Below, piece after piece: positions 17,950 to 58,098 of a DNA stretch of 64,000 bases. The position numbers and the translations under genes are program-made. Source of the stretch: Candidatus Aenigmatarchaeota archaeon (lineage in GTDB: Archaea; Aenigmatarchaeota; Aenigmatarchaeia; CG10238-14); contig JAHLMN010000005.1 of assembly GCA_018920345.1 (NCBI GenBank), positions 12,255-76,254 of the forward strand, given 5' to 3'. How positions within the stretch are numbered: position 1 is the first letter of the stretch; the number at the start of each line of letters is the position of its first letter. Under the pieces are notes generated by a model, which did not search any database, was not told the DNA's origin, and saw only the letters and a list, made by a program, of their open reading frames with translations.

Positions 17950-18170
17950 ATTTGTTTTGTCGAAATAAAATGCTTTTCTATTCGACACTTTTCTATTCGA
18001 CTTTTTGAAAAAACTTAGAATCGACAAAATAGACAATGCATTTTAAAAAGGCTTTTTTCTCCTTGTTTTTTTGCCTATCAAACATAGTTTTTGTTTCGAT
18101 TAAAAAGAAAATGTGTCGATTCGACTTTTCTTTTCTATATATTAGAAGGAGTTATATCAATCGACAATAT
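17950..18170. promoter_or_regulatory. Divergent intergenic region with at least 8 TCGAC-containing motifs, including a 15-bp tandem direct repeat CTTTTCTATTCGAC(A/T)
   Basis: gtcgaa (17960), cttttctattcgaca (17973-17987), cttttctattcgact (17988-18002), aatcgacaaaatagacaat (18019-18037), tttcgatt (18094), tgtcgattcgac (18113-18124), aatcgacaatattgtt (18159-18174). The pentamer is GC-rich in an AT-rich genome, so the enrichment is strong. Confidence 0.5.
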
Positions 18171-18211
18171 TGTTATACAATATTGGCCAATCTAAGAAGG
18201 AGGATATCCTC

Positions 18212-19069
18212 GTGAAAGAAGAAATATTGCAACTTTTGTCTAAACATCCAGAAGGTTTGACAATAACTTCTATAGCCGAAAAACTAGGGATACATAGACA
18301 TACTGCCACAAAATATGTTAAAGATCTTATCTTATCTGGGGAGATAAATGAGAGAAATGTCGGTATGGCAAAACTTTGTTTTTTGAATAAATACAAGTCT
18401 AGGCATATAATAGGTGAAAAAGCTGAAACAGGGCAGGCACAAATATTTGCTTTAGCAATTCTCTTATTCTTTATACCTGTTTTAATAATAGCTCAGAATT
18501 TTGGCACAAATATTACAGGTAGTTTTAGTGAAGTAATCGACACAACATTTATCACTTCTTCTAGCGATATCATAACAACAACGACAATTTCTGAATTTGT
18601 CGAAAATTCGACAGAATTAGTAGTCCAACAAGAGCCTTTATTAGTTGAAAATTACTCTGAGAATTCGACAGATTTTAATGAAGATATAGCTACTTCAGAG
18701 CATCAAAATATATCATCTTTTATCAATGAAACTAATGAAACAACCTCTAATAATTCATTAACAGAAATACAAGATGAAATTTTACAGCCAACTGAAACAA
18801 TAGAAAAAATAGAACTCGATTTAAACATTCCTAAAAAGATAAATAGAGGTGAAGAATTTCAAGCAACAGCTTCAGTATTAAACAAGTTTTCTTCGCAAAA
18901 AAATGTAAAAATAAAATGGATGCTTCCTCCTGGTTTTTCCATAATAAGAGGTAGTGAAGAAACTTTTTGTGAGCTAGAATCAGAGCAAGGATGCATTTCT
19001 GAAATAATGATAAAAGCTGAAACAGAGTTGGGGTTGCACGAGATAAAGGTGAAAGCAACTTATGAGTAA
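18212..19069 (+). CDS. Membrane-anchored winged-helix regulator (cytoplasmic wHTH, single TM, extracellular glycosylated domain); probable GTG start
   Basis: GTG at 18212 is preceded by AGGAGG 7 nt upstream and gives VKEEILQLLSKHPEGL..., parallel to the paralogue start. The tracked TTG/ATG start is 18170. TM is FALAILLFFIPVLIIA, followed by NxT-rich and CARDB-like sequence. The stop overlaps the giant gene ATG by 8 nt. Confidence 0.7.
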   Translation: MKEEILQLLSKHPEGLTITSIAEKLGIHRHTATKYVKDLILSGEINERNVGMAKLCFLNKYKSRHIIGEKAETGQAQIFALAILLFFIPVLIIAQNFGTNITGSFSEVIDTTFITSSSDIITTTTISEFVENSTELVVQQEPLLVENYSENSTDFNEDIATSEHQNISSFINETNETTSNNSLTEIQDEILQPTETIEKIELDLNIPKKINRGEEFQATASVLNKFSSQKNVKIKWMLPPGFSIIRGSEETFCELESEQGCISEIMIKAETELGLHEIKVKATYE

Positions 19070-22000
19070 TCAAAAATTCAACAAAAGCCAAGTTTCTCTT
19101 GCCTTAGCTATGCCTATATTCTTCTTACCTATTCTAGTAATTCTTCCTCTATATCTTGCTTTATCTTTACTTGTGCTATATATAGCCTTCATAAACTTAA
19201 GTAAAAAATCTGAAACAGGTCAAAGCCAGTTGTTAGCTTCTTTGATTGTCTTGTTAATAACCTCTACTTTAGTAATAGCAACCAATTCCACAATTACAAA
19301 TAATACTATCACAGGAATGTTCACAGAAGTCATGCCAGAAGAGATTGAAAAAACAGCTCAAATAGAAGTGTGGGCAAATACATTTATTGAAACTTCTGAA
19401 GAAAACAATCTTATAAAAGCTAGATTATTAATGGATAATGGTTCTTTTGTTAGCGGACAAGAAATTTTATCATATTTTAATGATCAAGTTCAAAATATTC
19501 AAATCACAGATAATGATGGTTATGCATACTTTGATAAAAACATAACTAAATTAGAATATAAAGGAAACCAAAGTTTATATTTGAACCCCAGTTTTATTGA
19601 AATAAATTATACTCAGACTTTAACTAGACAAGATTTCTTAACAGTTTTTACTGACAAACAGTTTTATGAAAGTAATGAGACAGTAAATGTTTTCGGTTAT
19701 GTTTCAATAAATGGCTCAGTAGAAGTTGAGATAATAGTTGAAAAAGACAGTCAAGTATACAAAACACAAACAATATCTGCTGAAAACGGTTCATATAATT
19801 ATAATTTTATTGTTGATTTTACCGAGCAAGGTGTTTATACAATAAAAGTAAGATCAATAGGTTTGATAAATACAACAGCATTTGAATATAGGTTGCCAAA
19901 GAAACTAAGAATAGAGGCTACTGCTTTTGCAGAAAATATAGGAAAGACAAAATTAAAGTCAATAATTGTTAACGGAAGCGTTTTTTCAGGAGATACAAAA
20001 ATACCAGCCTTAATAAAAGTAAAAATTTACAATGTTAATGGAGAATTGGTATTGCAGAGTCAAAAGCAAATTGTAAATAATTTCTTTTTCAATTTTACTC
20101 ACTTGCCGAAAACATATGGCAAATATTATGCTGAGATAAATGCTGAAACTGAGTTAGGCAATGTAAGCGAAACAATTTATTTTGATGTTTTAAAGCATTT
20201 AGTACTAAAGCCTTTAATAAAACAAGAAAAATTCAATTATGAGCTAGGAGAAAAAATAAGATTCCAAGTAGATGCTGTTGATGAAGATGGAAATATCTAT
20301 TCAGATGTAAATGTTTCTGCTTTTGTCGTTGATCCTGATGGCAATGTAACAGAAGCAAATGTTATAGCAGATGAAACTTTACCAGGAAGATTTTATGTTG
20401 AGTTAGATACTGAAAGAGAGTTTAGGCCAGGCGTGCACAAGCTAAAAGTTCGACTAAACTATATTAGTCCAAACCCAGGTGAGGTTGTTGTTGAGGAGGA
20501 AGTGGAATTTGCTGTTGGTTTGATTAATGTTAATACAGATAAAAGTATTTATTTACCAGGAGATAAAGCAAAGATAACAATTGGAGTTTTAAATAATGAA
20601 GGAAAAAGGGCTTATGATGCAACTGTTATTATGAATATAATAACCCCATCAGGGGAAATTTTTACATACAATAGTTATAATGGAGATTTTTCAACAGACG
20701 AAATTGACGGTAGTTTAGCTTTGCTTTATGATGTAAATGAAACTGGCAATTATTCGATAGATGTTTTGGCATATGGTTCAAATTTTTCAGTTAATTACCA
20801 GACATTTTTTGAAACAAGAAATTATGTAGATTTTGATATACAGAGAAAGGTAAAAACACTTATAGACATAGGACATCCAAATACAGCTGAAATAAAAATC
20901 AAATCCAATGTTAATGCAAACAATGTTACATTGATAGAAAAATTACCTAATAGTTTTTTAGAAATAACAGCATATGGAGCTAGAATAGAAAGAAAGGAAA
21001 ACGAAACTTGGATTATATGGAGTTTTAATAAATTAAATGAAAATGATGAAAAAACATTAAAATATAGCTTCACAACCCCTGATGTTAACCCAGCAATTTA
21101 TTTAGCAGGCCCATTAACAGTTTATTATAATGATTCATTTGTTTTTGAAGAATCAAAACCTTGGACATTTATTGTAGTTGATGTTGTCTATTATTTCTTT
21201 AAATTCATGCCTTATTACTATAGAACTAACAATGTAACTGATTCTGTTCAGCATATAGTTTTTAACAGCTTTGATGAATATAGAGATCCCGTTATTATGT
21301 GTAGAAACCACGAAAATTATTCTTTGAATGTTCTATTAACAGATGAAGCAGATGATGATAATGGAATAATTCAACAATGGGAACTACAAATTTATGATGG
21401 TTCATGGAAAGCAATAACAACAAATGGTGTAGCAGGATTTTATATAATGTCGGGAGAAACTAATCCTGTTTCAGGTAGTGGTGTCGGTACAACAGATACA
21501 TGTACATCAAACTTTGGTGTAGCAGGTGGTGATAAATGTGAATGGGGTGAACATTTCAGATGGAACATAACAATTAATAAAACAGCACCTTTAGGTTTAA
21601 CGAAAATAAGAGTTTTGCCAAAAACAAGAACGCAAGGTCCGATGTTCAATACAAATGAATTTTATGCTTATATAATAGATTGTCAAGATATTAATCTTGT
21701 AAGACCAATAAAAATATTTGGTCCATCAGGTGAGCCAATAGACAAAATATCGAGAGGCCATATAGCAAAAATTGTAATTCCATTAGCAAATTATAACTCA
21801 TCTTTAAAAAAGGCTAACATAAGTATAGATATAAAAGATTCTACTGGAAACTCTGTTGATTGGTTTATTGAGGAAGGAAAAGTACAAACAGTATCTATAC
21901 CAGGAACTTTAACAAGACCAAATTGGAGTGAGAAAATAGTTGTATACACAGTATATGTACCTGATGAAGTACAAGCAACAACATACAGTATTTATGTAAA

Positions 22001-25000
22001 TATAACCTCAGATCAAGTAGTTGTTCAACATGCAAAAACTTTTACTGTGTATACAGATGAAGGTGGAACATCAAACGATATTGTTTTGTTTACAAGTACA
22101 CCAAGAAAATTAGGTGCAAATTGTGAGGATACAGGAGGTCAAACAACAGGTTGTGGTACAGGTCACGCATCTGTTTGTGCAGACGGAGATGGTCAACCTT
22201 GTTATAAAAATTTCAGAGAAATTTATGTATGCAATTATGGTGATTATAATCTTACAGTAAATATAACAGATTTTACCGCCGGCTCAAATGTATATTTTAC
22301 AACAGAGACAGATGGGCCTATGGCTGTTCCCCAACCTGATTATAATTCAACAGGTGAAGTTAGATGGTATAATGTTAAAATAAATACATCTTCTTGCTTC
22401 ATGGCAGAAATTCCATATAGACCGACAGACGATACTGGTGAAGAAACTTTTATTTTACAAGCCGAATGGATAGATCCTGTTACAGGAGAGTCACAAATGG
22501 TAACAAATAAACATATTTCATTAATATCTGCAACTACTGGAACACAATCTCCAACTATAACTACAATTCTTAACAGAACAACAGTGTATCCAAATGAGCA
22601 ATTACCTTTAAGAGTTATTGCAAAACTTGGAGGAAGTGAAGGTTTTGCAGCAATCGATGGTGCAGCAACACACACTGTTGTTCATTATGTTGAATTATAT
22701 ATACCTCCAGGATTTGAAAGGCCAACAAACTTTAGAGTTGTGGATAATAATGGTGCAACTATTAGAGCAACATCACCAGATCCAGGATATCCAATAGGTT
22801 CTCCGGAAGAAGGTTGGGTCGTTAAATTTTCTCCATATTCAATTGGCGGTACAGTGATAAGATTTGCAGCTGCAGCAACACAGTCTGTTGGAAATATAAA
22901 CCATTATGTGGATTTCGTAACAACTGTTTTACCTGAAAATAATATAACTCCAGGTGGAAAAGTTTTTTATACAACCTATGTAGGTTGGATGAGACAAAAC
23001 AAAGATTACCTTTTCAAAACTGATAGAAACGTGTTAAGTGTTTTATCACCATTTATAAAAACTGTTAGATATTACAATACAACAATCAATAATGAAGAAA
23101 AAGGATTTCCTTCTTCAAATATGTGTCAGCCATTTTCTGTAAAGCTTCAAGTTTTTAACAAAGGAAATTTGCCAGCAACAAATTTCAATGTAACAGAAAA
23201 CAAATATAATCATAGTGTTACACACTGGAATGATTTGCAATTTTCAAATTTCAACCCCTCTGCAAATGTTTACAGCAGTAACGGCATAATTTGGGGAAAC
23301 AATAACATCAATTTTATACCAACTGGAAAGGATAATTCATTGAATTATACTTATATAATAACAGTACCTTATCAAACAAATGGAACATTTGTTTTCAAAG
23401 CTTTGACAAGAAATATGACATATATCTTCTATGACAAAAATTATACATCATTAATTTCATGTGGAGCATCATTAATTGTAAGTGAACCAATAATTAAAAA
23501 AGGTGAAATAACAAACCCACCAATTTATGCTGGTGACATTTTCAATATTTCTTCGACAATTTATAATGATGGCCCCGGAAATGCAAGCAATGTTATAGCT
23601 ATAATCAATTATACAGCTAATTTTGATGTTAGAAACTTTACTAATCACAATAGCAATATCACATATTTAGGAAATATTCAAAGCAAAGAATCAAAAGTTG
23701 CTCACATAGATTATACTTATACTGTTAATACTACAGGTGTATTACCAGGTACATATACATTTTGCATAATAGCGAATGCAACAGAAAATGCAACAAAGGT
23801 TGCTGCTTGTAAAGATGTAACAATACAAGCTCCACCAGCAACAATAGAATTAGAAAATCCACTAATTATAAGTAAAGAAACAGGCAGCTCAAGCGGTTCA
23901 TGGGGTTACAATTTTACTTTCAATATAAGCGTAAGAGTAAGCAATTCAGACACAGATGTTTCTATTTGCTCTTATTTCAGCAAAACAGGAAACGAGCCAT
24001 GGATACAAGTTGGCGAATGCCAAAACTATCCAGCTCCAGGCCAATCTATAGGTCAATGGCAAAACTTTACATATGAATTTGATCCTAGTTGCAATGACAT
24101 AGGTCAAATAGTTTTTGTAAAATTCAACGCAACCAATAATGCAGGCACAAGCAATTCAACGCAAACAACATTTTCAATAACAAAAGATAAAATTGCATTT
24201 GAAAACTTAATTGGTAATAATACAGAAACAAGAAGAGGTAAAACAGCAACTCTGCTTGCGATTAGAACTAGAGATGCAAACGGCACACTTGTGACAAACT
24301 TACCATTAACATTTTTCGTCACATTAGATGGCACCATTTATGATTCTGGTTATTCAACAACAACAAATGCTTCTGCTTATGCCAATTATTATTTCCAAGC
24401 ATCATGCTCGCCAAAATACCAAGTTGGTTTGCAAAAAGTGAAAATTGTTTTAGCTAATAACGAATGCTATCAAGACAACAACACAGAAAGTTATTATAAT
24501 ATTTATACTAATGTTACAGGTGATATAATTTTATCTTTTGTAAGGCCTGACGGCTCTGTGAACTATACACAAGAGCAAGAAATTCCATTTTTAGGAGCAG
24601 TCACAGATGATTGTAACGATCCTATAACAGCTACAATAAAATATTTCATCAATCAATCTTCATCCAGCATAGAATGTGAAGACATTAGTCAAGTTGGTTC
24701 CAATGCATTTACTTGTGATTTACCAACAACAATAAACACACCAATGGGTTGGTATAACACGAGCATGTATGCCAATAAATTGCAACATTACAATAATTAT
24801 ACAAATAATTTAGGTAACCCAGGATTGTTCTATTTATTCCCAATCAAAAAATTATTACAACCGTCTGCTTATCCAACAACAGAAGGTTGGGGTTATCCAA
24901 ATTGGAATTTCTCAATAAATGTGAGCAGCGGAGATTCTGAAAATGTTTTGTTAGCTAGTCTTTATATGGCTCAATATTGGCCTCCAACCTATCCTTGCCC

Positions 25001-46000: not shown

Positions 46001-49000
46001 TAACATTACATGCTCAATAGATGATAATACAGTTATGTATTACAATGCAAGTATTCCAAGAGCAACTTCTCTTGTTGAAATAAAGAGGCCTTTGATAATT
46101 CAATCAATAGATAAAAGTTCTCCATTTGTTTATAGAAATGATAGTTTTGTTCCAAATAATGTTAACATAACAGTAAGAATTAAAGATGCATTAATTGGAG
46201 ATGCAGAAAATGCAAATGTTACTTTCTATAATTCTACTGGTTTAATAGATTGGTGTTTGACAAATTCAACAGGTCAATGCTTTATAACATTTAATCCAGC
46301 TGATACAATAACACCAAACATTTATACAATTTATGTTAATGCAACTAAAGTAGGCTTACAAGACTCTGTTACAAATACAACAACAATAGAAGTGAAAGGA
46401 AAGCTTTTTGTCAACATATCTTCACCTTTAAACAATAGTTTCTGGGCAAGAACAGACAATATAGCTTTAATAGCTTCTGTTTATGATGAAGCTGGTCAGG
46501 AAACAACAGCAACAGTAAGATGGTTTAATGAAACAGCTCAAGTTGCCTCTGGCGAAAACAGCAATTGGTATTTAATAGAGCAAACAACAGGTAATCATAC
46601 ATTAACAGTAAATGCCACAAGAGATTATTATGATAAAGGTGAACAAACAATAATAATAACAATAAGCAGCTTGTCAGATGTTCAATGGATTTATCCAAAT
46701 GATGGCAGCATAATGCCATACCCAGATGCATTCAACACTTTATGTAGAGTAATAGATAGCAGCACAGGCACTCCAATACCAAATTACATGGTGCAATTCT
46801 GGTATAACTATACACCTGGTTATATTTTCAATGGTACATTGTATACAAATGCTTCTGGTATAGCAACAAATACATGGCAACCTCCACAAAAAGGTCAAGT
46901 TATGTTTAGATGCAATATAACAAATGATTATGAAAAATTATATACAGCAAACATAAAAGAGGCATTTGCACTAATTACAATAAGAGATATAAGACCACCA
47001 CAAATAAACAATATTTCTATTCAACCTTATGCAGGTTTAGAAGCCAATTTAAATTACACAAACATCTCAGCTGTTATAACAGATGATATAGCTGTATATG
47101 AAGCCTGGGCACAAATAACAATGCCTAACAGTACTATATTGAACTTAACAATGCCTAATAGTGGTAATACTTATAGTGTTTTGTATCTACCTCCAATAGG
47201 AGGAAATTATAGTGTAAGAATATATGCAAGAGATTATCCACCAGAAAGCAACTCCAACAACACATTTGCAGGAACATTTTATGTAAATGGCAAAACTAAT
47301 GGTATTATAACTCAACCTGATAATATACAAATAAATGGCATAACATGGACAAGCTCTGAATCAGCAGAATTAACAATCAATTTCACTAATATAGGCCCAG
47401 CAACTGCTTATGCTGTCAATATTTCATTCATTTCTGATCCATTAAATTCACTTATATTAAATGAAACCATTCATGAATGTGGCACAGTCTATAATCAAAG
47501 CTCTTGTATATTTGGTTTACTAGTCACAGTGCCAGCTGCTACACCACCTTCAGCTATCAAACTTATATCAAATGCAACTTGGCGCAATCCTGACTTGACA
47601 AAAAGTTTCACAACAGAAGATACTAATTTTGTTGTTATTTCAAACAAGATAATTGATATATTACAAGACAACATAACAGCTATTGCTCCTCATGACAAGC
47701 TTACTGATTTACCTGATATAACTGTTCAATCTTTAGGAAATGACATGATAACTGATATAAGCATAACAACAACAGGCGGCAACATATCAACATTATGTCC
47801 AGACTGCGAACTAATAATTGTTCCAAATGAATGGGGTCTACTTGAAGCAGGAGCAAGCTTTGTTTCTGATTTACGTATAAATGTGCCAAGAGCACAACCA
47901 CCAGGAACATACTGGACTTATATCAAGGCAGCATCAGTTGAAACATCGCCAGACTTGATGCCTTTGTATATTACAGTGCCGCTAAATACATCATGGTCAC
48001 GCTCTCCTGAAAACTTTGGCTTAATATTAGCTCCACCAAACACATCTGGTTATATAGGTGAAATAACAACAACAAGCTTTGCAAATATAAGATTAATATT
48101 AAATGCTTACAAACTACAGAACGGCTCACAACTTTTCAACATTTATCCATCTGCTTTCAGTCTTGACAATGGCGCTGTGAGAAACATCACTGTCACATAC
48201 AATATACCCTCATCTTTCATTTCTTCTCAAGGATTATATTATGCTCAAATAATTATAACAAATGAAACAGCAATGCCAAATGAATACAGAACAGAATTCT
48301 GGTTAAATGTTACAGATATACCTCCAATAATATCAAATGTATCTTTTGTGCCAACTGAGTTTGAAATGATTTATGAATCAACAAATATATCAGCAATTAT
48401 TAGAGATAATTTTGCAGTAAGCTCAGCTTTCCTAAATATAACTTTACCTAATAGCACTAGCTTTACTCAACCTATGAATAATACAGGCTCTTATTATTCA
48501 ACTATTTACACAAGCAACATACATGGCTATCATAATATAAGTATTTGTGCAATTGATACCCAAGGCTTACAGGGTTGTACAGAACCAACACCAATATTAG
48601 TTTCAGGTGAAACAACAATAAGAAATGTCTTTAACATAAGCAAAGCAGTCGTGCCTAACATCACTTTGTCAAATGGAAATGAATTTGCAATAACATTTAC
48701 AACAAATAACACAGGTTTATCAAGAGCATTTAATATTTCAGTAAATATAACAACACCTTCAAACATATCATCAAACATAAATTCAACTTTCTATTCATTG
48801 CTTTTAAAGAATCAATCATCTAGTCAAGTAGTTGAATTTAATGTTTCAGCTGCGACAAGACCAGGCATTTACAAAATTAATTTCACAAACAATTGGACAA
48901 ATTTAGATCAAACCATTTCCTCTTCCCTCGATCAGCTAGAAGTAGAAGTATTATCAAATCCAAGATTGAATACAACTGAAAACATTACAGTTTATGTACC

Positions 49001-52000
49001 AGATGGAACTACAAACAACGCTACTATGATATTGCAAGCATCAGGTAATGATGATGTCTACAACATAACATTCTCCTGTCTTGATGGTGTAGCTTGTCAA
49101 GACTTTAATGTTTCATTCTATCCAACATTCATAAACAGAATTAATCTAACTGATACAGATTTAGTAAACATTTCAGTTTCAGTGCCAAAACAATATATGA
49201 CAGGAAGATATAATGGAACAATACTAGTAAATGCAACAAACTTTTCCATGGTCGTGCCTCTATATGTAATAGTCCCAATGAACATTTCTTGGTCTCAAAC
49301 ACCTTTAGAGATTAGCAAGACAGTTTTAGGCGATACAAAAGGTGTATTTGGTGAAATAGAATTGCAAAACACAGGCAATGCACCTGTAATTCTAGAAATT
49401 CTCAAATCAGGAAATATTAGCAACTATATATCTTTATCTGAGAGCAGCATAACAATACCAATAGGTCAAACATATTTAATAAAAATAAACTATACAGTTC
49501 CTGTCATAAATCAAGAAAGCAACTTTACAGGTGAAATAATTATAAGAAATACAACAGCTGACCAACAAAAACAAACATCTGTTTCTCTATATGTATTGCC
49601 ATACTATGTAAACATAACAAAACCAACCGAAGTTGAACCTATTGTAAACATAGCATTTGGAGATGTAGTAACATCTTATGTCAATGTAACATATAGTCAA
49701 ACAATAACAGAAAATGTAACATTCTATTTAAGAATTGGAAACGAATCATTCTCACAAGCAATAGTGGTTGATTCATCTCAATTCTTACCTGACATGCAAT
49801 TATGGCAAATAAACTTCACTGCACCTTTATTACCTGAAAACAGAGCTTATGATTTAAATGTAACAGCTTACTATTCAACAAAGAATGTTACAAGAAGTGA
49901 TATAGAATATAAAGCAATAAACTATAGAGATTCTATACCACCAAATATAACATTAATAACGCCACTCAAAGTTCCAGCTGGTTATATAGCTATAATAGAT
50001 GCACTAATATATGAAGAAGGCAATCTAAAGAATGTTTCTGGTATAATAACATATCCAGATAATAGAACAGAGTATGTTAATTTTGCAAGATTAAAGAGAA
50101 CAAACAACACATATTATTATCAACACAATATAACTAATACAACTTTGCTTGGCGTTTACACAATAAATGCAACAACTTGTGACTTTTCAGGTAATTGTGC
50201 TAATGCCTCAGCAGAATTTAGCATATATCCAGCTGCATTATTCCATGGTTATTCAAAAGATTATGAAGCAGCTTCTGAGCCAGTACAATTTGTTAACTTT
50301 AGCTTATATCAACCTGGAGTAGAATTGCTTTTATTCAACATTACACCTAACATGCAAACAGGTTATTATTCTGCTTTAATAGATGCAAGATCATATGACT
50401 TGCAAGCTTCCATATTCAATTCTACTGTTTTAGCCAGAGATGTTGAAATTATACAAGATGTCTTCAATCCAATAATATTTGGTGATATACCATCAGAAAA
50501 AATAAGTCTTGGTGCATTAACAGGTTTGTATGTAGAATCTATATTGAATACAACTAACACAAGCATTAAGATAGATTATTCACCTTATATTAGCAAGGAA
50601 ATATGTAAGATGAATAATGATTGTAGACCAGCATTATTCTTTGAAGAACATCTTTCATTATTTAGATGCAACGCTTGGACAAGAAAGATTGGTTGCTCAG
50701 GTGGTTGGACAAGGCTAGATACAAAAATAAATACTACATTACACTTTGCTGAAGTTGAAGTTATAGGCAATATTTCAGGTGCTTATGCATTAGCTCCATA
50801 TATTTGTGGCGATGGCATATGTGATCATGGTTATGGAGAGTCACCGTTCACATGTCCAAGAGATTGTGAATTACCAAGGCCAGTACCTGTTCCACCAGCA
50901 GCAGGAGGTGGGGGTGCAGGTGGAGGCGGTGGTGGAGGTGCTGCAGGAGGAAGAGAAGTAAGCATATCTGTACCAGGATTGCCTTATTCAATAAAATCAA
51001 CTTTGTTATTCATCACAATAAAGCCAGGTGAGCAAGAAATACACTCTATTGAAATATCAAATAATGAAGACAAAGAGATAGAAGGCCAACTAAAAGTAGA
51101 AGGATTTGCTTGGGAAATGATAATGCTTGAAGAGCCAGTGTTTAAAGTGGCACCAAAAACTACCAAAGTAATAAAAGTTAAAGTCTTTGCCCTACCAACA
51201 ACTCAGCCTGGTATATATACAGCTGATCTAGTCACAACAATTAATGGCGAACAGCATAGAACACCAATAACAATAAAAGTTGAATATGGTCCAGAGCCAC
51301 TATTAGACGTAAAGATAGAAGCATTATCCAAATCAGTGAGACCAGGAGAAGAGGCAAAATTCCAAGTTACAGTGCTAAATATGGGTCAGACCGCGACAGT
51401 AGAAGATATAGTATTGAATTATACATTAAGGAATTTAAGAACAAACGAGATGATTTCTGTTGGGCAAGAAACAATAGCTGTAGAAGATGTTAATACATTC
51501 ATCAAATCCTTCCATATACCAGAAGATACACCAACTGATAGATATGTCATAGAAGTTACAGCAAGCTATTGGTATGGCAAAAAACAAGCTAGAGCAGCTG
51601 CAGCATTTGATGTTGTTTACTTGCCAGCACCATTGATAATATTGAAAGCTCTTGCTACAAGCTGGATCACATATTTAGTAGTCCTTATAATTGCGCCAGC
51701 TGCTGCAGTTGGCTATAGAGCTTACAGATATTATACAACTATGAAGAAGATTAAAGCCAAATACATATTCCCTGTTGATATAAAGAAGTTACCACAACCA
51801 GGACCAAACACAATATTAGTTGGTAAAGTTGCTGAAACAGATATAAATGCTTATACAGATGTCAACAAGCTTGTCATGCATAGCTTAGCAGCAGGAGGTA
51901 CTGGATCTGGTAAAACAGTATCGGCTATGGTTACAGCAGAAGAATTGCTAAAGAGAGATATACCAATAATTGTCTTTGACCCAACAGCTCAATGGACAGG

Positions 52001-52841
52001 CTTCATAAGGCCTTGTAAAGATGAAGAAATGTTTAAGCTATATCCACAATTTGGCCTGAAGAGAGAGGATGCAAGAGGATTCAAGACAAACATAATAATA
52101 GTTAAAGATCCTAACATGAAGCTAAACTTGAAAGAATATATGAAACCGGGTGAAATAACAGTATTTGTTATGAACAAACTTTCCATGGCTGAAATAGATA
52201 CACTAATAAGAGCATCTATACAAGAGATATTCGACATGAACTTGCCAGAATCAAAACAATTAAAGCTTTTAATGGTTTACGATGAAGTTCACAGATTATT
52301 GCCTAAATATGGAGGTAAAGGTGGTTTCGTAGCTCTAGAAAGAGGTGCAAGAGAATTCAGAAAGTGGGGTGTTGGCTTATATATGATATCACAAGTACTT
52401 ATGGACTTTAGAGGAGCAATTAGAGCTAACATTGGTACAGAAATACAAATGAGAACAAAGTACGAAGGTGATATCAATAGAGTAAAGACAAAGTACGGCG
52501 CTGATTATGCTGCTAGGATAACAAAACTTACTACTGGTACTGGATTGGTGCAAAATCCAGAATACAATGAAGGTAAACCATGGTTCGTTGCATTTAGACC
52601 ACTATTGCATGATACACACAGACTAACAGATGAAGAATTAGCTGAATATGATGCAACACAACAAAAGATTAAAGAAGCTGATGATAGAATTGCAAAACTA
52701 AAGGCAAGAAAGATAGATACTTATGATGTTGAGCTAGAGCTTAACATAGCTAAAGATAAGATGAAACAAGGAATGTTTAAGATGGCTCAAACATATCTAG
52801 AATCTGTTGATAGTAGACTAAAGGCATTAGAGAAGAGATAA
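19062..52841 (+). CDS. Giant (11,259 aa) membrane-anchored, heavily N-glycosylatable surface protein with C-terminal cytoplasmic FtsK/HerA-superfamily ATPase domain
   Basis: Single uninterrupted ORF. N-terminal TM segments. Extracellular tandem modules carry conserved GGWGE, QKWK, CYKD and WYN[IV]T motifs. CARDB-like domains near the C-terminus. TM at ATSWITYLVVLIIAPAAAVGY, followed by positively charged residues. Walker A GGTGSGKT, DEVH box, and a RGAREFRKWGVGLYMISQ motif typical of COG0433/DUF87 ATPases. Confidence 0.85.
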   Translation: MSNQKFNKSQVSLALAMPIFFLPILVILPLYLALSLLVLYIAFINLSKKSETGQSQLLASLIVLLITSTLVIATNSTITNNTITGMFTEVMPEEIEKTAQIEVWANTFIETSEENNLIKARLLMDNGSFVSGQEILSYFNDQVQNIQITDNDGYAYFDKNITKLEYKGNQSLYLNPSFIEINYTQTLTRQDFLTVFTDKQFYESNETVNVFGYVSINGSVEVEIIVEKDSQVYKTQTISAENGSYNYNFIVDFTEQGVYTIKVRSIGLINTTAFEYRLPKKLRIEATAFAENIGKTKLKSIIVNGSVFSGDTKIPALIKVKIYNVNGELVLQSQKQIVNNFFFNFTHLPKTYGKYYAEINAETELGNVSETIYFDVLKHLVLKPLIKQEKFNYELGEKIRFQVDAVDEDGNIYSDVNVSAFVVDPDGNVTEANVIADETLPGRFYVELDTEREFRPGVHKLKVRLNYISPNPGEVVVEEEVEFAVGLINVNTDKSIYLPGDKAKITIGVLNNEGKRAYDATVIMNIITPSGEIFTYNSYNGDFSTDEIDGSLALLYDVNETGNYSIDVLAYGSNFSVNYQTFFETRNYVDFDIQRKVKTLIDIGHPNTAEIKIKSNVNANNVTLIEKLPNSFLEITAYGARIERKENETWIIWSFNKLNENDEKTLKYSFTTPDVNPAIYLAGPLTVYYNDSFVFEESKPWTFIVVDVVYYFFKFMPYYYRTNNVTDSVQHIVFNSFDEYRDPVIMCRNHENYSLNVLLTDEADDDNGIIQQWELQIYDGSWKAITTNGVAGFYIMSGETNPVSGSGVGTTDTCTSNFGVAGGDKCEWGEHFRWNITINKTAPLGLTKIRVLPKTRTQGPMFNTNEFYAYIIDCQDINLVRPIKIFGPSGEPIDKISRGHIAKIVIPLANYNSSLKKANISIDIKDSTGNSVDWFIEEGKVQTVSIPGTLTRPNWSEKIVVYTVYVPDEVQATTYSIYVNITSDQVVVQHAKTFTVYTDEGGTSNDIVLFTSTPRKLGANCEDTGGQTTGCGTGHASVCADGDGQPCYKNFREIYVCNYGDYNLTVNITDFTAGSNVYFTTETDGPMAVPQPDYNSTGEVRWYNVKINTSSCFMAEIPYRPTDDTGEETFILQAEWIDPVTGESQMVTNKHISLISATTGTQSPTITTILNRTTVYPNEQLPLRVIAKLGGSEGFAAIDGAATHTVVHYVELYIPPGFERPTNFRVVDNNGATIRATSPDPGYPIGSPEEGWVVKFSPYSIGGTVIRFAAAATQSVGNINHYVDFVTTVLPENNITPGGKVFYTTYVGWMRQNKDYLFKTDRNVLSVLSPFIKTVRYYNTTINNEEKGFPSSNMCQPFSVKLQVFNKGNLPATNFNVTENKYNHSVTHWNDLQFSNFNPSANVYSSNGIIWGNNNINFIPTGKDNSLNYTYIITVPYQTNGTFVFKALTRNMTYIFYDKNYTSLISCGASLIVSEPIIKKGEITNPPIYAGDIFNISSTIYNDGPGNASNVIAIINYTANFDVRNFTNHNSNITYLGNIQSKESKVAHIDYTYTVNTTGVLPGTYTFCIIANATENATKVAACKDVTIQAPPATIELENPLIISKETGSSSGSWGYNFTFNISVRVSNSDTDVSICSYFSKTGNEPWIQVGECQNYPAPGQSIGQWQNFTYEFDPSCNDIGQIVFVKFNATNNAGTSNSTQTTFSITKDKIAFENLIGNNTETRRGKTATLLAIRTRDANGTLVTNLPLTFFVTLDGTIYDSGYSTTTNASAYANYYFQASCSPKYQVGLQKVKIVLANNECYQDNNTESYYNIYTNVTGDIILSFVRPDGSVNYTQEQEIPFLGAVTDDCNDPITATIKYFINQSSSSIECEDISQVGSNAFTCDLPTTINTPMGWYNTSMYANKLQHYNNYTNNLGNPGLFYLFPIKKLLQPSAYPTTEGWGYPNWNFSINVSSGDSENVLLASLYMAQYWPPTYPCPSNICLNQTPLECANCIGSVKYWYRNFTAYEQGIWYYQFKLDGTQTDQVISVTVEKDDTNITYGGEGNLTTVIKDVQPQYLSARVYDLDRQTYNVTSPSATVTFKLYNSNYPDGYIILGSALTNETGYARFLFNITNCYGFYEGTQLWTAEINSSEPYYKPSQMGNGTITIQLPGCQPQIDVEQILTPKEVFSGRNFTVNATITSWVASAENVYATIYLPAGWQVDQAIKSLGTVNVGEHVRISWNVNATTDGVENITVYVNSTNANNDVIYSNKIISYKPITSSIIETLPKIIQPSQSQIFSFLCEAGDYRIANITTNWNGTNTKAKLYSYNGTTWIDIGERYLNETKIEFIPILQHQINSNETGYCLIKIQNIGDNYINISNIQFSAYYNETIKIQDINTTVFGNQITGIEPNQKLNVTVKVANSGQGQTGILWLNITGPTGLVNYSSQNINIPNGISFFNINDIDTSTWQEGTYSIKAFVDYGNKTERIELLELRQIQARIHAYNWMCNSSTEDLSVDIYHPFNDDIQYNISLQVPSGWQYSPVYQLINASTKGNYTANFTITSGNTAEVALINASIVYNYPQEKSLQVTKQIISNSIAILEVIREMPKYVGNDKVFDAQLVIHNKGCAPTTGTTTVSEQISAGWIPANPFIKKNEYGDNIELISTQVDLIKNKVTWNLGQIGVNEYAVLTYQIKAPVDTAREGQFTWNVSWDGKSLRERDPYNVQTANYSNEAHLEFDLEALQQEAYPWVEPRSAQLNRNYEYALKVTNVGDKNATDWTITLYVPEACDVKAIKNSGSWNSTSRKISWSLPEIETYESTYLNFTLNCTIEGKKILIAEALKDERQQIAFTNDTSISCYGQECLIEQPFTFTKPVNARYETLSALNMLVNYDWSGFRNTIGEGKITFTDDLGNYYTLWQNYSHDSTSSSLWQNYTILENEKYVSPTRKIKIEGYADATDDALTNVTINKINYVWNVGKYFQEPQELFIKTKIYTYKPLLENATLYINGNSSRIIGGWGETFNFSVMLRDRFGRDVTVYAWHKKGAGEYSLIGSWTCYSCLEWNQANFSYDYIGSDISSWEFKFNATNADGTSTLNGYPYTVEADDINVDFAYPTYNMTVNRSGTSNFVILVYDRDNQTSPAYLMPGETDEGKGRIYISKFGSNTTFDLSPSLSANSTGHVVRQMSNIIPQWCLVSDYYLGQNYWKGGIEGAVTYKNNATGIYPFMLVGDLSNSYLTQPNNKNFTRGSTINLDGVIKDDCNDVKTDSARFGAEYILTHESTEYRITASLTSASFEIPLDAPLGWYNITMISFSEGIDNDKYWNGTYFKQNAFFLASIPQLNNVQVQPYPKGSWETKPFNFSVYITNIDNETVFARLWFKNQTDDWFLQNTTTCSNCDNYYFLTQHNFTCYNIGEWKAQFNATSATSFSNLTTTITFNITKSDISILHSSGNNTIVNRSDDEPANTRELSVQIFNLVTNKNETAISTSDVYTWVYDGSTYIEQLETANTSHYYFNFNPSCSYQVGKQKWKVNTTSSCYSTNTSEEFYIDIYGSLNNTLILPDGSTNYTQNDQILLLGQITDDCSQPVLNANVRFKLQSGSNIYYCPSSGYITNTTGNYYSCVWDSSGKPGGFYNITMESNKAYHNNGTDYLQNAFFLITPVQLISPQVSYPGDGSWGELHNFTVFVTHYAPANVCLLERTPTTQWQVTECKYVENPQNTFVNFTRYYTCDEYQASALRYFVFNASEPGVAATYSNTTEQSHVLVKNDITITYVYGNESFVNRNGANTTKFILFVNDTDRNQPAYYLLGASVKPQVWFRVHNATSYLVDGYNSTNTSGYVEYNFNPSCSYEAGKFKWQGYTSSDSCYKDYSAEEYNVTIIGDLVANVTYPDGITYFRNLELYIPINGTVIDECNLHYNENATVNFTAISVGFGTEYQCLPVDNAGTGKYNCTLNATTIEEGWYNVRMNATNVQYYNNATILASNKFRVIQQWVPPILENATVLPEQDWGWGENFTFIVNVSDLNAQDINVSLWLSPDNQTWQYISSQICYNCGSKKQLTFYYKGFNCDAIPKYYFKFNASDQYNKTEIAGIEFPITKNDVEVRYVDFAVGNNSVVNRNEYTMLRLRLYDTDNKSYLPANVNGRIFVTTNYVDFDLGNANITDEQGYLSYYFQPNCNYLAGVQKWKGGTYEDACYKDSNITDYLQTTIIGWLNNTIIEPNGDVYYSNQNVTIVTNVSDECFLPITDASVVFMLNHSSNYYQCLDVSSNNGWYNCTWNISNNPSGWYSIRMNSTRQYYNNATTYSEQSFFHQVDPQLKAAFVTPNSTWWGSTFAFKVNVTDDDDYVNVSLWIRCVGGNITPNGCSPDSEFSLANTTNVYDYINNQVMLTKKFADGVNIGNYEWFINASDNYGGFANTGIYTFNVTKRPVYLVYVSGNETNVSRIGANTTLVRVRLFRVGADGGNDEPLNGLSVNFWFTQDGSTWSNTPRSNTTGQSGPGYAEFAFNPSCPATDGGIDFFKTGRQWWNATFSSNTEPGIYYYANTSTNFTLYINSTLNVKIIKPDGEYYPVGTNIYTLANVSDECEYVSQASVQLSVSGESISCSNNTGDANGQYSCILLTSVLGTGDYNEEATATKNYYDSAYTFKPNAFKIRYSPQLSNQQVTPTTEGWGYNFTFNVSAQDSDPGDYLNISLWKSYGGEWIKVEQKNCDSCLSQQTLFFHPIFSCEDYINGPVVRFKFNATDSYGLKAETPNITLTFEKDDVLFTILQGSGATINRSDENDNNAYNFVVIVNDTDRRNVTVNSSEEPDQTITGYFVFSKEPISPTFDSGHSNTTVNGYLSYYFNPDCNYKTGLQYWKVNISGNTCYKDTELTEYQTFNIIGQLKTNLYLPQKYSEFNVTDNITFKFNTYSDCYLQGAEDNGNISVDTSSLRLNETFYCTPIQQELAGNYNCTWDSTGKPQGNYTVNITVEKLNYNFNTSYYIDWFYLKNRMPNVTEMNVTPYSSGWGDTYTYRAEIFDEENDTVTCSLYTNTTGQWVYKGSNTINTPGNCSITVNDFSCDEQGQASFMFEINDTFTRFNTSVVLGPIIAKDNVSVTHILGNNSYVNRSGDQYTTFILNITDTTKKVKAQNANTTIWITTDGSNYQSWFDLKSNETGHVIFKFNPNCSSPTYSLGKQYWLGGVRNDVCYNEANTTENFTVNILGDLQLFINQPKGEKYLRTNYPDGSYVIIKANISDDCLLPITNAQVNFTSEKGLTKKYCNPIYNEGDSNYNCTIDTTTYQAGAWNLTMNASLINYNYNTTTYVYQPNQKGYWVETKPVIEPYLPITPIPAGDGGWGEYWLFRTNVTDEDLDTLTLRLWINSTSEPETWTFKASNNSVSGINQTVFFNVTFTSTFANKHFKFKYNVSENVIDFIQNINETGNGTFYLDKDDTFVQYIEGNNTVVNRSAPISVSNFTMTVRLWDADKYDTTIGNRRIRFWMTTDNAENWVVVSPAALRTNGTGEQPSSAGWGYASNISHPGCNFAVGPQKWKAEIYNEDPYKSSNSSISFFTIIASQLQSKVISPKNKTILKGIEDLVIKGNVSDDCGLVANASVTITVIDSSGTVRGVCKPNDPFNPTLDESNGIYNCTFPASQIYSEDWPTGWYNVTINATKQYYNDSVTYVEQSSFRISTAPELSNAIVTSEEGSNVGGWGELWQFSVDIIDPDNDNSTVYLWLNLTGDWVLYNQTYWRNGIDPSTITFYNTFNCTGLADLGTKFFKFNASDNYGYKDEITNSFTLQPDDTEVYVTATNGQSINREGPNELELSAWILDIDRDYIPVGEGVNTRIRITTNASDPNSWSDYETQTNSSGYTKRIIDPDCTYSVGIQTWRAEVYNDVCYKTAYDQDTITVLGSIYNSLLAPDQYSSYPTGTPVAINYSTTSDCTNVRSDETPYINVTPTIELSLTGANWEQCSPITNNYGIYNCTWNSSYKQPGYWDIKLTSNKQYYNTKQTVYQDWFEIYNANPTNTSTPTVTPTIGGWGTVYNYSVQLLDTDGDPITCVLYTSTDDGNTWVKQGQQLIGSVGTCSFLVKNFNCNATYTDVGSDNWFKFEITDGYHTPFNISSEPGPIIEKNNITITLFAGNNSVVNRTGNDFTILRVFVNDTTKGWPVGNATSGNATIKFNITYNGISYLLEGSNTTYRGNVTYRFNPSCSYYVGDQKWIAYKQGEIGGDQCYNDASSEVFNLTITGNLINVIQKPSGEKYNRGEVNVTIRGNVTTDCPSLDGLISTALVNYTIIHVGTQNTYSCTEGTFTNEGNGYYNCSFDTTSKPTQWYNIRMNSSGFQYYTPNTTTKTNAFFISTIPNLTNPTTTPLSGGWGAPHTFSVYIKDDDNDVNNVSLWIRCVGGGCNPTNFWLAKTTLITASSSPQQVQFTKTDFTPADIGNWEYFFNASDGLNSANTSINTFTITKDTINLTLVAGNEAVINRSTTETATLRVKVFDVDRNVALSPGEPGTGYFYVTTDPNNPNSYVIDKTLTSIEGGSYLTDIFPTLARCTYGVGPQKWKVEFGSDAYQATNSSEFLINITTHEIILQIIGPNNQTFRRARDPIPLVAQANDDCGGLIGATTFFKAYPEYSWTTCNSPTDNLNGTYNCTLYSPETAGLTYYNLEFNATKQYYNSSSNAYKQDAFVLVTNPEIIAYTPVTSDTVYPNGWSEVWNFTASVRDIDQNVYNFEKLNISLWIDFGSGYQLVNSTICSATDNPNCASWKTITFLFRNFTCGDIGIKSYKWNVTDVWNYTNETTATLTVDKSDVIIEFVDQPSYIYRADTSTGKFVYRVYDTDKGQYVTNTSTNTMMWITTDGSTYDNGRFVQINSSGYAVYEFDPDCNYRYGMQKWIAGVYEDACYKNKNLSFTPQFEVRVQLQNNLLVPVYNSIYNVTDMILVRFNTTTECSAEGLIGNATTTISLQSPLGVWETCTPINNEYNGWYNCTWNSTHKKEGYWSIMLNSTKTPYFAQNSTVYSNWFWLENLNSSYDNITLTPTIGGWSRLYNYTIDIDDPEREDINCSLFISKDNQLTWEYKGSYLLQNGLGTCFVTVHDFTCEDIGKEIFYKWQVVNGEPANAYNTSAYKGPNITESLVQVQLSQGNNTFINRTFQTKPLIVRIFDIENQSYVYNANTSFWITYDYSNYLLVNKTQTDYNGYALYSFTPSCIYQVGTQNWKAGIEDDKCYSDVNSTDYLVHVNGTLFNTILQPSGQEFLRGDNITIKANVSSDCQNEVMNESVYLELTTVKDLQSLQCTPVLNENTGVYNCTFNTSSYAARWWNITAYSNKIGYNSNYTTKINAFWVETKPELNNPTVMPLGDGGWGETWIFTVNFTDEDLDPNTVRLWVNKSSGWSNANTTIVSGINQTITFVQVNLFTSSDYINSLNNLTKFYFRTQDEIIPTENDTAETPQINITLQKDDVYINHTYGNNTVVNRSGGSLFFRVRMWDTDRVPWDDLPSGSKGRFWFTKDGNTFVNTIDKFANSSGEIAHLQALDCSFQVGPQKWFAELYGNTPYKDTNSSIFNWTIVTVGLTANITDPDGIPRLRGIDDIVLRARVTDDCGGVPNATVIFHVPDENYDCTNVYYEGNGYYNCTIPAATTASWNTGWHDVTVDVSKQYYNGTFVEKTNAFYLATKPEILLTPPPAAIPEQDGGWGEDWLFTAITQDTDGDSYNVSLWFNLTGNWQLVDSVIVSGPQQVDFPGKTFSCDDIGERQFMFKVTDVWGYENNYTSPFTIYKDDTIIDYVAGAGTQVNREYDDIEPIIVQISDFDRDGIYVGSNVNGSFFITTDGSNYIQAAANKTDTSSLLSYYFNPNCTFNVGIQKWKAGTYNDRCYKDNIPDYGFTIEITGQLKNNLIKPNYGEIIAVGNLVNTTFQVLDECGFAVNDSNGKIEFGSPTNSFEQCLPITDQGNSIYNCTWNTSFHMGGYWDIRLNSSKQYYYSNSTLLNDWIYLLNTPPAYENLSVTPTSEGWGRNFSFSVDVDDLQYDNVTCTLFVSTDNGLTWKNKGNYTVYGGRGKCIVNVSDFDCGDIGNDNRYLFQLYDGTNLINTTNNTNLIIEPNDVEIIYISGNNTFVNRSGNQYTTFVVQVHDLDANTYPKDVNMSVFVTVDKTNYLINSTPRSDINGMLYYNFNPSCTFNELGMQYWLIGADNNVCYKSVNTTQNYTVNIIGDILNRLTTPSGQDFLRGEDNITFTIETSDDCAAPVDNANINLTLISEYGNTYSCEPIDEFGGGIYYCTKNTSGMRARWYNVSVNTSKEFFNTNVSLHVRPFFIKTMPIVQNLTITPAQDWGWGEKYIFTANVTDEDLDTVYVNLYYTPVGFDDWVQINSTTITSPFNTTVTLTYQGFTCSDIDYEQEFEFTVLDNRSYLVNSTVREPWKKKFNLTKDDVQIIYEAGNGEEVWRNGTDSRRLSIRVYDTDKGSYPGSGYNGMFWVTTNYAQFDIGKATTTNSSSFLNYYFTSEAPQPECDYLTGVQKWKAGIYDDACYKDTNSTNYTITIKSELRPQIDYPYGQGFIRPNPVPFIARIYDDCGLVSGATTTWTAYNGPNEYGCTNKTEANGWYNCTWPSANRPYGYYNLQFAATKNYYAPNNTYRANAYFLGTLPQLSDPKILNNHYLGGWGETYEFSVKLTDFDLNTNNVSVWKSFDAQNWTLVASQNVSNAVNQQIIFPVKFNCSDMGFNYFYFTSVDQFGYSTNTTILNFTLEADNVTLSIGLINTTVRRIGEQQALLNFTIYDDDYGRYAPNALGNINITLDYSNYSYVFNCTTNERGQCYIYYNPNCSSLAGVQSWIGKTVDSCYQIKETSPTSLAVIGQLNTSILNPYNGQILNRNQNASLNTIILDECFNEVSGATALWYNETWSNIASGYNTNWIIPTYYELGPETIYLNVSKTYYDPNSNKTNVYIYGWSGISILNPLDSSFYLAGTSVNVKCKVIDLNTTMPLQSYMVKFYKNGTLMDTQPTNSDGEAFWLWQTMTENYGWYNITCSIDDNTVMYYNASIPRATSLVEIKRPLIIQSIDKSSPFVYRNDSFVPNNVNITVRIKDALIGDAENANVTFYNSTGLIDWCLTNSTGQCFITFNPADTITPNIYTIYVNATKVGLQDSVTNTTTIEVKGKLFVNISSPLNNSFWARTDNIALIASVYDEAGQETTATVRWFNETAQVASGENSNWYLIEQTTGNHTLTVNATRDYYDKGEQTIIITISSLSDVQWIYPNDGSIMPYPDAFNTLCRVIDSSTGTPIPNYMVQFWYNYTPGYIFNGTLYTNASGIATNTWQPPQKGQVMFRCNITNDYEKLYTANIKEAFALITIRDIRPPQINNISIQPYAGLEANLNYTNISAVITDDIAVYEAWAQITMPNSTILNLTMPNSGNTYSVLYLPPIGGNYSVRIYARDYPPESNSNNTFAGTFYVNGKTNGIITQPDNIQINGITWTSSESAELTINFTNIGPATAYAVNISFISDPLNSLILNETIHECGTVYNQSSCIFGLLVTVPAATPPSAIKLISNATWRNPDLTKSFTTEDTNFVVISNKIIDILQDNITAIAPHDKLTDLPDITVQSLGNDMITDISITTTGGNISTLCPDCELIIVPNEWGLLEAGASFVSDLRINVPRAQPPGTYWTYIKAASVETSPDLMPLYITVPLNTSWSRSPENFGLILAPPNTSGYIGEITTTSFANIRLILNAYKLQNGSQLFNIYPSAFSLDNGAVRNITVTYNIPSSFISSQGLYYAQIIITNETAMPNEYRTEFWLNVTDIPPIISNVSFVPTEFEMIYESTNISAIIRDNFAVSSAFLNITLPNSTSFTQPMNNTGSYYSTIYTSNIHGYHNISICAIDTQGLQGCTEPTPILVSGETTIRNVFNISKAVVPNITLSNGNEFAITFTTNNTGLSRAFNISVNITTPSNISSNINSTFYSLLLKNQSSSQVVEFNVSAATRPGIYKINFTNNWTNLDQTISSSLDQLEVEVLSNPRLNTTENITVYVPDGTTNNATMILQASGNDDVYNITFSCLDGVACQDFNVSFYPTFINRINLTDTDLVNISVSVPKQYMTGRYNGTILVNATNFSMVVPLYVIVPMNISWSQTPLEISKTVLGDTKGVFGEIELQNTGNAPVILEILKSGNISNYISLSESSITIPIGQTYLIKINYTVPVINQESNFTGEIIIRNTTADQQKQTSVSLYVLPYYVNITKPTEVEPIVNIAFGDVVTSYVNVTYSQTITENVTFYLRIGNESFSQAIVVDSSQFLPDMQLWQINFTAPLLPENRAYDLNVTAYYSTKNVTRSDIEYKAINYRDSIPPNITLITPLKVPAGYIAIIDALIYEEGNLKNVSGIITYPDNRTEYVNFARLKRTNNTYYYQHNITNTTLLGVYTINATTCDFSGNCANASAEFSIYPAALFHGYSKDYEAASEPVQFVNFSLYQPGVELLLFNITPNMQTGYYSALIDARSYDLQASIFNSTVLARDVEIIQDVFNPIIFGDIPSEKISLGALTGLYVESILNTTNTSIKIDYSPYISKEICKMNNDCRPALFFEEHLSLFRCNAWTRKIGCSGGWTRLDTKINTTLHFAEVEVIGNISGAYALAPYICGDGICDHGYGESPFTCPRDCELPRPVPVPPAAGGGGAGGGGGGGAAGGREVSISVPGLPYSIKSTLLFITIKPGEQEIHSIEISNNEDKEIEGQLKVEGFAWEMIMLEEPVFKVAPKTTKVIKVKVFALPTTQPGIYTADLVTTINGEQHRTPITIKVEYGPEPLLDVKIEALSKSVRPGEEAKFQVTVLNMGQTATVEDIVLNYTLRNLRTNEMISVGQETIAVEDVNTFIKSFHIPEDTPTDRYVIEVTASYWYGKKQARAAAAFDVVYLPAPLIILKALATSWITYLVVLIIAPAAAVGYRAYRYYTTMKKIKAKYIFPVDIKKLPQPGPNTILVGKVAETDINAYTDVNKLVMHSLAAGGTGSGKTVSAMVTAEELLKRDIPIIVFDPTAQWTGFIRPCKDEEMFKLYPQFGLKREDARGFKTNIIIVKDPNMKLNLKEYMKPGEITVFVMNKLSMAEIDTLIRASIQEIFDMNLPESKQLKLLMVYDEVHRLLPKYGGKGGFVALERGAREFRKWGVGLYMISQVLMDFRGAIRANIGTEIQMRTKYEGDINRVKTKYGADYAARITKLTTGTGLVQNPEYNEGKPWFVAFRPLLHDTHRLTDEELAEYDATQQKIKEADDRIAKLKARKIDTYDVELELNIAKDKMKQGMFKMAQTYLESVDSRLKALEKR
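24400..45450 (+). repeat. Intragenic array of about 20 diverged tandem ~1-kb (~330-aa) coding modules
   Basis: The conserved QKWK-type motif recurs at about nt 29580, 30565, 31545, 32562, 33558, 34527, 35580, 36597, 37590, 38617, 39612, 40580, 41562, 42522, 43488, 44478 and 45422 (period 944-1053 nt). The GGWGE-type motif recurs with the same period. Repeats are protein-level, not identical DNA. Confidence 0.7.
51760..52838 (+). other. Cytoplasmic P-loop ATPase domain (FtsK/HerA superfamily, COG0433/DUF87-like) of the giant protein
   Basis: Walker A gca gga ggt act gga tct ggt aaa aca at 51891-51917. Walker B / DEAH-like VYDEVH at 52275-52292. ALERGAREFRKWGVGLYMISQVLMDFRGAIRANIGTEIQMR resembles the HerA/DUF87 arginine-finger region. 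Confidence 0.65.
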
Positions 52842-58055: not shown

Positions 58056-58098
58056 CTTTTTCTTTTATATTTTCAGTTTAATTATTAAATTTTTGAAA

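Follow-up and report, generated by a model that had tools for sequence, protein, structure and literature searches.

The stretch analysed here is 64,000 nucleotides of the genome of a Candidatus Aenigmatarchaeota archaeon (GenBank assembly GCA_018920345.1, contig JAHLMN010000005.1, positions 12,255 to 76,254 of the forward strand; hereafter the window). More than half of it is occupied by one open reading frame (ORF), which is a real gene and encodes a complete member of the giant, membrane-anchored surface protein family of the DPANN archaea, the SPEARE-like proteins with a VirB4-like ATPase. The encoded protein (hereafter the giant) combines a very long ectodomain of immunoglobulin (Ig)-like domains with a C-terminal transmembrane (TM) helix and a cytoplasmic P-loop ATPase, and is possibly the largest complete family member described so far. 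Tentatively, and at slightly under even confidence, it is interpreted as a glycosylated host-contact surface protein that couples attachment to ATP-driven movement across the membrane or to force on its stalk.

The giant gene and its conservation

The reading frame extends from ATG to TAA and contains no internal stops under translation table 11:

19062..52841, + strand: giant ORF, 33.8 kb, 11,259 amino acids, with colinear orthologs in relatives

These coordinates, the length and the absence of stops are exactly those given in the initial annotation of the window, and the share of the window reported there as 53% is computed as 52.8%. At the base composition of the gene itself (A 0.38, T 0.29), a stop-free run of 11,259 codons would arise by chance with P ≈ 10^-403; the five remaining frames across the gene contain 651-1,135 stops. 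An alternative genetic code or stop read-through is moot because table 11 yields no stops at all. The GC content at third codon positions is ~0.21, in line with the codon composition of the other genes of the genome. The genome that carries the gene comprises 815,730 bp in 27 contigs with ~29% GC and is rated 95.5% complete; the window corresponds to G000:C2:12255-76254 within it, and no gene there is longer than the giant ORF, which makes up 4.1% of genome length. The nearest labelled relatives of the giant are proteins from metagenome-assembled Candidatus Aenigmarchaeota genomes, to which its C-terminal region is 95-97% identical.

A gene that contains repeats could in principle be a collapsed or chimeric repeat assembly, or a read-through of several genes, and the initial annotation had named frameshifts, stops and chimerism as the concern and giant genes in related DPANN genomes as a check. 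Colinear orthologs were found in four genomes of the same order, each assembled independently. The ortholog in a genome of the same genus (G002) has 11,248 amino acids and is 76.6% identical across its full length. Those in the other relatives have 11,434 amino acids at 43% identity (G036), 10,144 amino acids, lacking ~2,750 amino acids of repeats (G040), and at least 12,990 amino acids in a gene that runs off the start of its contig (G039). Logan contigs from hot-spring metagenomes of three separate studies carry the giant gene at 95-99% identity without any frameshift, differing only by single-nucleotide polymorphisms and one in-frame 3-bp deletion. The deletion lies at window position 47449, removes one codon (approximately residue 9463) in contigs of two runs and represents strain variation in the repeat region. 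Among the sequencing runs listed as containing the gene there is none of RNA, which bears neither for nor against its expression. The repeat units share 23-37% amino acid identity with each other and 60-80% identity at the DNA level; they are old and diverged, which makes it unlikely that near-identical copies were collapsed or expanded. An assembly artefact is therefore rejected as exceedingly improbable on the strength of the colinear independent orthologs, the frameshift-free population contigs and the diverged repeats, together with the vanishing probability of a chance frame.

The initial annotation also described proteins of this size as very rare in archaea. Archaeal proteins of more than 10,000 amino acids are indeed rare and have been reported chiefly from metagenomes of Asgard archaea (West-Roberts et al., bioRxiv 10.1101/2023.11.21.568195), but the giant belongs to a family that is conserved across DPANN, with orthologs of 10-13 thousand amino acids in its relatives.

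The Ig-like ectodomain

The region outside the membrane is dominated by Ig-like folds, of which the following were mapped:

20529..20789, + strand: MG2 (macroglobulin-like Ig-fold) domain, residues 490-576 (Pfam, E 2e-13)
23891..45791, + strand: 19 diverged repeat units of ~330 residues, residues 1611-8910, with three Ig-like beta-sandwiches predicted in each (self-BLAST, AlphaFold2 and Foldseek)
25575..25751, + strand: NEW3/NPCBM-associated Ig-like domain, residues 2172-2230 (Pfam)
27266..27566, + strand: DUF11 domain, residues 2735-2835 (Pfam)
48672..48887, + strand: second NEW3 domain, residues ~9871-9942 (Pfam)

Other Pfam families matched in the ectodomain are Big_7, Big_1 and Filamin, and Pfam scans at lax settings over the first 1,650 residues and over one middle block return Ig-like families only. 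Structure prediction, which had been proposed as a check, was carried out for the repeat unit with AlphaFold2 on an alignment of all 19 copies; the model consists of three Ig-like beta-sandwiches with a mean predicted local distance difference test (pLDDT) score of 92.7. Foldseek matches this model to macroglobulin-domain chains of C3, C5 and alpha-2-macroglobulin (A2M), to the Ig protein OPCML and to the giant adhesin SiiE. Because 19 units each provide three such domains, the ectodomain of ~10,800 amino acids is modelled as a rod of ~60 Ig-like domains.

The MG2 match raised the possibility of an alpha-2-macroglobulin protease trap. This candidate is ruled out, as the giant has no CGEQ thioester motif, and MG2 is present only as an Ig-like MG domain.

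The huge ectodomain noted initially also carries a compositional signature of its location. It contains 512 N-x-S/T sequons, compared with 190±12 in shuffled sequences, and the cytoplasmic part contains none. This distribution strongly supports an extracellular, glycosylated ectodomain, for which hundreds of N-glycans are predicted. The ectodomain is also acidic, with 1082 Asp and Glu residues against 672 Lys and Arg residues.

The membrane anchor and cytoplasmic ATPase

The C-terminal region follows a fixed order from a Cys-rich motif outside the membrane to a helical tail inside the cell:

50802..50951, + strand: Cys-rich motif (CGxGxC...GE...CPxDC) followed by a Gly-rich linker, residues 10581-10630 (many homologs; Tandem Repeats Finder on the Gly repeat)
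50952..51626, + strand: two juxtamembrane Ig-like domains, residues 10631-10855 (AlphaFold2 model of the C-terminal module; Foldseek matches to fibronectin type III and Ig domains)
51627..51722, + strand: C-terminal TM helix, residues 10856-10887 (hydropathy, model helix and alignment)
51753..52625, + strand: cytoplasmic HerA/VirB4-type P-loop ATPase of the FtsK-HerA superfamily, residues ~10898-11188 (Pfam DUF87/HerA_C)
51894-51917, + strand: Walker A, GGTGSGKT, residue 10945 (invariant in 30 homologs)
52275-52298, + strand: Walker B, VYDEVHRL, residue 11072 (invariant in 30 homologs)
52350-52370, + strand: ATPase motif REFRKWG (invariant in 30 homologs)
52386-52409, + strand: ATPase motif SQVL (invariant in 30 homologs)
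52593-52613, + strand: ATPase motif FRPLLH (invariant in 30 homologs)
52626..52841, + strand: C-terminal helical tail with the motif ELNIAKDKxKxGxFKMAxTYLES (model helices, model residues 560-628; conserved in orthologs)

The initial annotation correctly placed a TM segment near the C-terminus but missed the 370 cytoplasmic residues beyond it that contain the ATPase. A basic, conserved segment (YRxYRYY...KYIFPVD) directly after the helix agrees with a positive-inside orientation. On the outer side, the Cys-rich motif and Gly-rich linker are kept family-wide immediately before the juxtamembrane Ig domains, with metal binding or a disulfide-stabilised hinge as candidate roles.

Across the giant family, conservation is highest in the ATPase. 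Its hidden Markov model matches in the PDB are HerA proteins, the nearest NCBIfam models are those of the DNA- or substrate-translocating ATPases CedD, CedB, HerA, TraD, TraB and TraC, and the closest solved structures are DNA translocases and type IV secretion system (T4SS) or other secretion ATPases. Walker A and B, the arginine-finger region and a HerA-like fold are all present, and the C-terminal ATPase fold is also VirB4-like. Since the catalytic motifs are invariant in the 30 homologs, the ATPase is probably active. The N-terminal HAS-barrel of HerA is absent, as only ~60 amino acids separate the TM helix from Walker A and the model shows no barrel there, and the VirB4 N-terminal domain (PF03135) is found nowhere in the genome.

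The N-terminus and the upstream gene

The two N-terminal hydrophobic segments reported in the initial annotation were located at residues 13-44 and 57-73; the first is missing from the G040 ortholog. The second forms part of a conserved motif that also occurs in the small gene directly upstream:

18170..19069, + strand: upstream gene P0004, winged helix-turn-helix and ETGQ hydrophobic motif
19098..19193, + strand: hydrophobic segment 1, residues 13-44 (hydropathy)
19200..19280, + strand: conserved motif SKKSETGQ-SQ plus hydrophobic stretch, residues 47-73 (also in P0004 and in ortholog N-termini)

The ETGQ-motif segment possibly represents a class-III (prepilin-like) signal, judging by its resemblance to such signals, or an N-terminal anchor. 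The genome encodes a prepilin peptidase and several PilB/FlaI-type ATPases, and a crude regular expression for class-III signals, applied genome-wide to ORFs of at least 100 amino acids, returns the giant and two others only. Tethering of the giant at both ends, with the ectodomain as a loop of ~10,800 amino acids, is plausible, with cleavage of the N-terminal segments as the alternative. P0004 encodes a MarR-like winged helix-turn-helix, the motif ETGQAQ plus hydrophobic stretch that it shares with the N-terminus of the giant, and a weak match to the A2M family. Its ORF, with a TTG start, overlaps the start codon of the giant, and the gene is also found upstream of the G002 ortholog; a regulator or a partner of the giant are candidate roles for it.

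Family membership

Hamm et al. (2019; PMC6642349) first described SPEARE proteins in nanohaloarchaea as giant, mostly extracellular proteins with a C-terminal TM segment and a conserved intracellular part, and reported SPEARE-like sequences in Aenigmarchaeota, Woesearchaeota, Micrarchaeota and Altiarchaeales. The family was later redescribed from two nanohaloarchaeal members, SVXNc_0300 (9,409 amino acids) and BNXNv_0298 (8,880 amino acids), which combine ~75 Ig-like domains with a signal peptide and a TM segment; a VirB4/TraG-like ATPase lies in the cytosol, and the tip is a coiled coil. They were proposed to bind the host and to drive effector secretion with the ATPase, and the earlier protease and restriction-enzyme annotations were rejected (PMC10266531).

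The giant shows the same architecture: a very large Ig-like ectodomain, a single C-terminal TM helix, a cytoplasmic ATPase and a helical tip. At the N-terminus, where the family has a Sec signal peptide, the giant has two hydrophobic segments and a conserved G/Q class-III-like motif, which may or may not act as a signal. Like the giant, SVXNc_0300 and BNXNv_0298 come from DPANN ectosymbionts and combine tens of Ig-like domains with a single TM segment, a VirB4/TraG-like ATPase and a helical or coiled-coil tip; their N-terminal signal region may have its counterpart in the hydrophobic N-terminus of the giant. The giant differs from them in its greater length, its 19 diverged three-Ig repeats and its origin in hot-spring Aenigmarchaeota. 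Its kinship with the two proteins rests on this shared architecture and on family-wide homology of the C-terminal module, rather than on direct sequence comparison. A homolog search finds the module in Aenigmarchaeota, Micrarchaeota, Pacearchaeota, Woesearchaeota, Nanohaloarchaeota and Altiarchaeales, in most cases joined to NEW3, MG2, CARDB or Big surface domains. Many matches in the search for homologs of similar length are partial, so that standalone TM-ATPase proteins are inseparable there from fragments of giant genes.

The SPEARE protein of Nanopetramus SG9 (PMC6642349) is likewise giant and mostly extracellular, with a C-terminal TM segment and a conserved cytoplasmic region. In contrast to that protein, no serine-protease, toxin or laminin-G domain is detected in the giant by Pfam at the gathering threshold or at E ≤ 0.5, and PMC10266531 disputes protease and laminin-G domains as family-defining. 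The restriction-enzyme and protease domains of the original SPEARE description are not detected by Pfam in the giant either; its cytoplasmic part is a HerA/VirB4-type ATPase instead of a restriction enzyme, the same correction as that made in PMC10266531.

The fused arrangement also sets the giant apart from better known translocases. The hexameric HerA DNA translocases (Sulfolobus 4d2i; HerA-NurA and SIR2-HerA) have a HAS-barrel, whereas the giant has none and its ATPase is fused through a TM helix to an ectodomain; a coiled-coil protein takes the place of NurA or SIR2 as partner. Compared with FtsK/SpoIIIE or TraD-type translocases, the giant lacks an FtsK-like multi-TM N-terminal module and unites adhesin and motor in one polypeptide.

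The downstream partner, a paralogous locus and other genes

The gene that follows the giant begins 46 bp beyond its 3' end, and a related gene pair lies on another contig of the genome (C20):

52888..54291, + strand: P0003, 467-amino acid coiled-coil protein with weak SMC/Rad50-type coiled-coil similarity
G000:C20:4674-11306, + strand: paralogous surface protein, 2,213 amino acids, with a TM-ATPase module 33% identical to that of the giant over ~1,000 amino acids
C20:11303-12502, + strand: homolog of the coiled-coil partner, downstream of the paralog
57972-58056 of the window, + strand: tRNA-Ser (gga)
58099-58174 of the window, + strand: tRNA-Pro (ggg)

Orthologs of P0003 lie downstream of the giant in all four relatives (G002, G036, G039 and G040). 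A MinD/ParA-type ATPase (GKGGVGKTT) adjoins the coiled-coil partner in two of them (G036:C3:12856-13617 and G039:C1:41200-41955) and is absent from the window locus. The paralog shares with the giant the Cys-rich motif and Gly-linker, the TM segment and the HerA-type ATPase module; it also has repeated beta-domains and a signal peptide of the standard type. Because it has the same module and its own coiled-coil partner, the genome carries, by sequence homology, two giant-adhesin/ATPase systems. Three other large proteins of this genome, encoded on C15 (1937 amino acids), at C2:91204-99195 (2663 amino acids) and at C14:32614-35973 (1119 amino acids), have a very high density of N-glycosylation sequons (4-5.4 per 100 amino acids) and are probably further surface or S-layer-type proteins.

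Proposed function and mechanism

Cultured DPANN archaea engage in contact-dependent ectosymbiosis or parasitism. In the proposed mechanism, the Ig rod would reach and bind the surface of the host cell in such an association. An extended rod might measure tens to a few hundred nm; rough arithmetic from the count of ~60 domains suggests ~200-300 nm, near the diameter of a DPANN cell. The ATPase would then assemble as a ring, presumably a hexamer, on the cytoplasmic side of the membrane at the contact site, and ATP would be used either to move a macromolecule (DNA or protein) across the membrane or to pull on the stalk. If transport occurs, it could be import of DNA for nucleotide salvage or export of effectors. 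The analysis establishes the gene, the order of its domains, the overall topology and the intact ATPase motifs, whereas the oligomeric state, the substrate and the direction are inferred. Hydrolysis of ATP is likely given the invariance of the catalytic motifs across homologs, and the recurrence of the giant/ATPase and coiled-coil gene arrangement at the C20 paralog also speaks for the proposal. That the protein probably acts at the cell surface and in interaction with a host, as the initial annotation suggested, agrees with the published family proposals (PMC6642349, PMC10266531).

Several points weigh against this interpretation. Without a HAS-barrel and a VirB4 N-terminal domain, the ATPase may not form a classical translocation ring. 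The N-terminal segment may be a signal or an anchor, and the protein may accordingly have one or two membrane anchors. The cytoplasmic/TM part and the ectodomain of a nanohaloarchaeal member were found in different proteomic size fractions, which hints at processing (PMC6642349).

An alternative is a protein that acts as an adhesin or tether only. The rod would attach to the host or mediate contact between cells, and the ATPase would be structural, cluster the protein in patches, act in regulation or drive the stalk to change shape or retract, with no substrate transported. The Ig-rod architecture resembles that of bacterial giant adhesins (SiiE is among the Foldseek matches), no channel or pore domain is detected, and the ATPase has none of the N-terminal domains through which HerA and VirB4 make their ring and channel contacts. 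However, the HerA/VirB4/FtsK-like ATPases of known function among its structural neighbours all translocate DNA or protein, and catalytic residues invariant in 30 homologs argue that hydrolysis is needed, beyond scaffolding. Bacterial giant Ig-repeat adhesins such as Salmonella SiiE, and archaeal halomucin, resemble the giant in being attachment rods of extreme size built from very long Ig-like arrays; SiiE-type adhesins and halomucin are secreted or linked to a type I secretion system and are not known to have a fused cytoplasmic ATPase, and halomucin is not known to have a motor domain. A purely adhesive role is possible but rather doubtful.

Transport in the outward direction has been proposed for the nanohaloarchaeal homologs (PMC10266531). 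The giant would be a secretion apparatus in one polypeptide, in which the VirB4/TraG-like ATPase exports effectors towards the host and the Ig rod keeps hold of it. This is considered unlikely for the present protein. It differs from VirB4 of the T4SS in lacking the VirB4 N-terminal domain and is accompanied by no T4SS gene cluster, although other T4SS genes nearby were not examined. Its downstream partner is a coiled-coil protein, whereas the nanohaloarchaeal giants are followed by a second VirB4-family ATPase, and no candidate effector is identified.

Transport in the inward direction would make the giant a one-polypeptide device for contact and import: the rod would dock to the host cell, with the HerA-type ATPase reeling host DNA or another polymer inward for nucleotide salvage. 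This version, which likens the ATPase to FtsK/SpoIIIE or to the Ced DNA-import ATPases of Sulfolobus, is likewise improbable. If true, it would represent a new archaeal machine for cell-to-cell DNA import that is built from one gene.

Implications for DPANN biology

DPANN archaea have tiny genomes and live as obligate symbionts that depend on a host. How they attach to their hosts and take up host material is a central question, and the giant family is implicated in the contact. The giant exceeds the described nanohaloarchaeal members in size and has orthologs of comparable scale across its order. Its fusion of an adhesive rod, perhaps several hundred nm long, to a DNA-translocase-type motor suggests that contact and transport may be combined in a one-protein machine.
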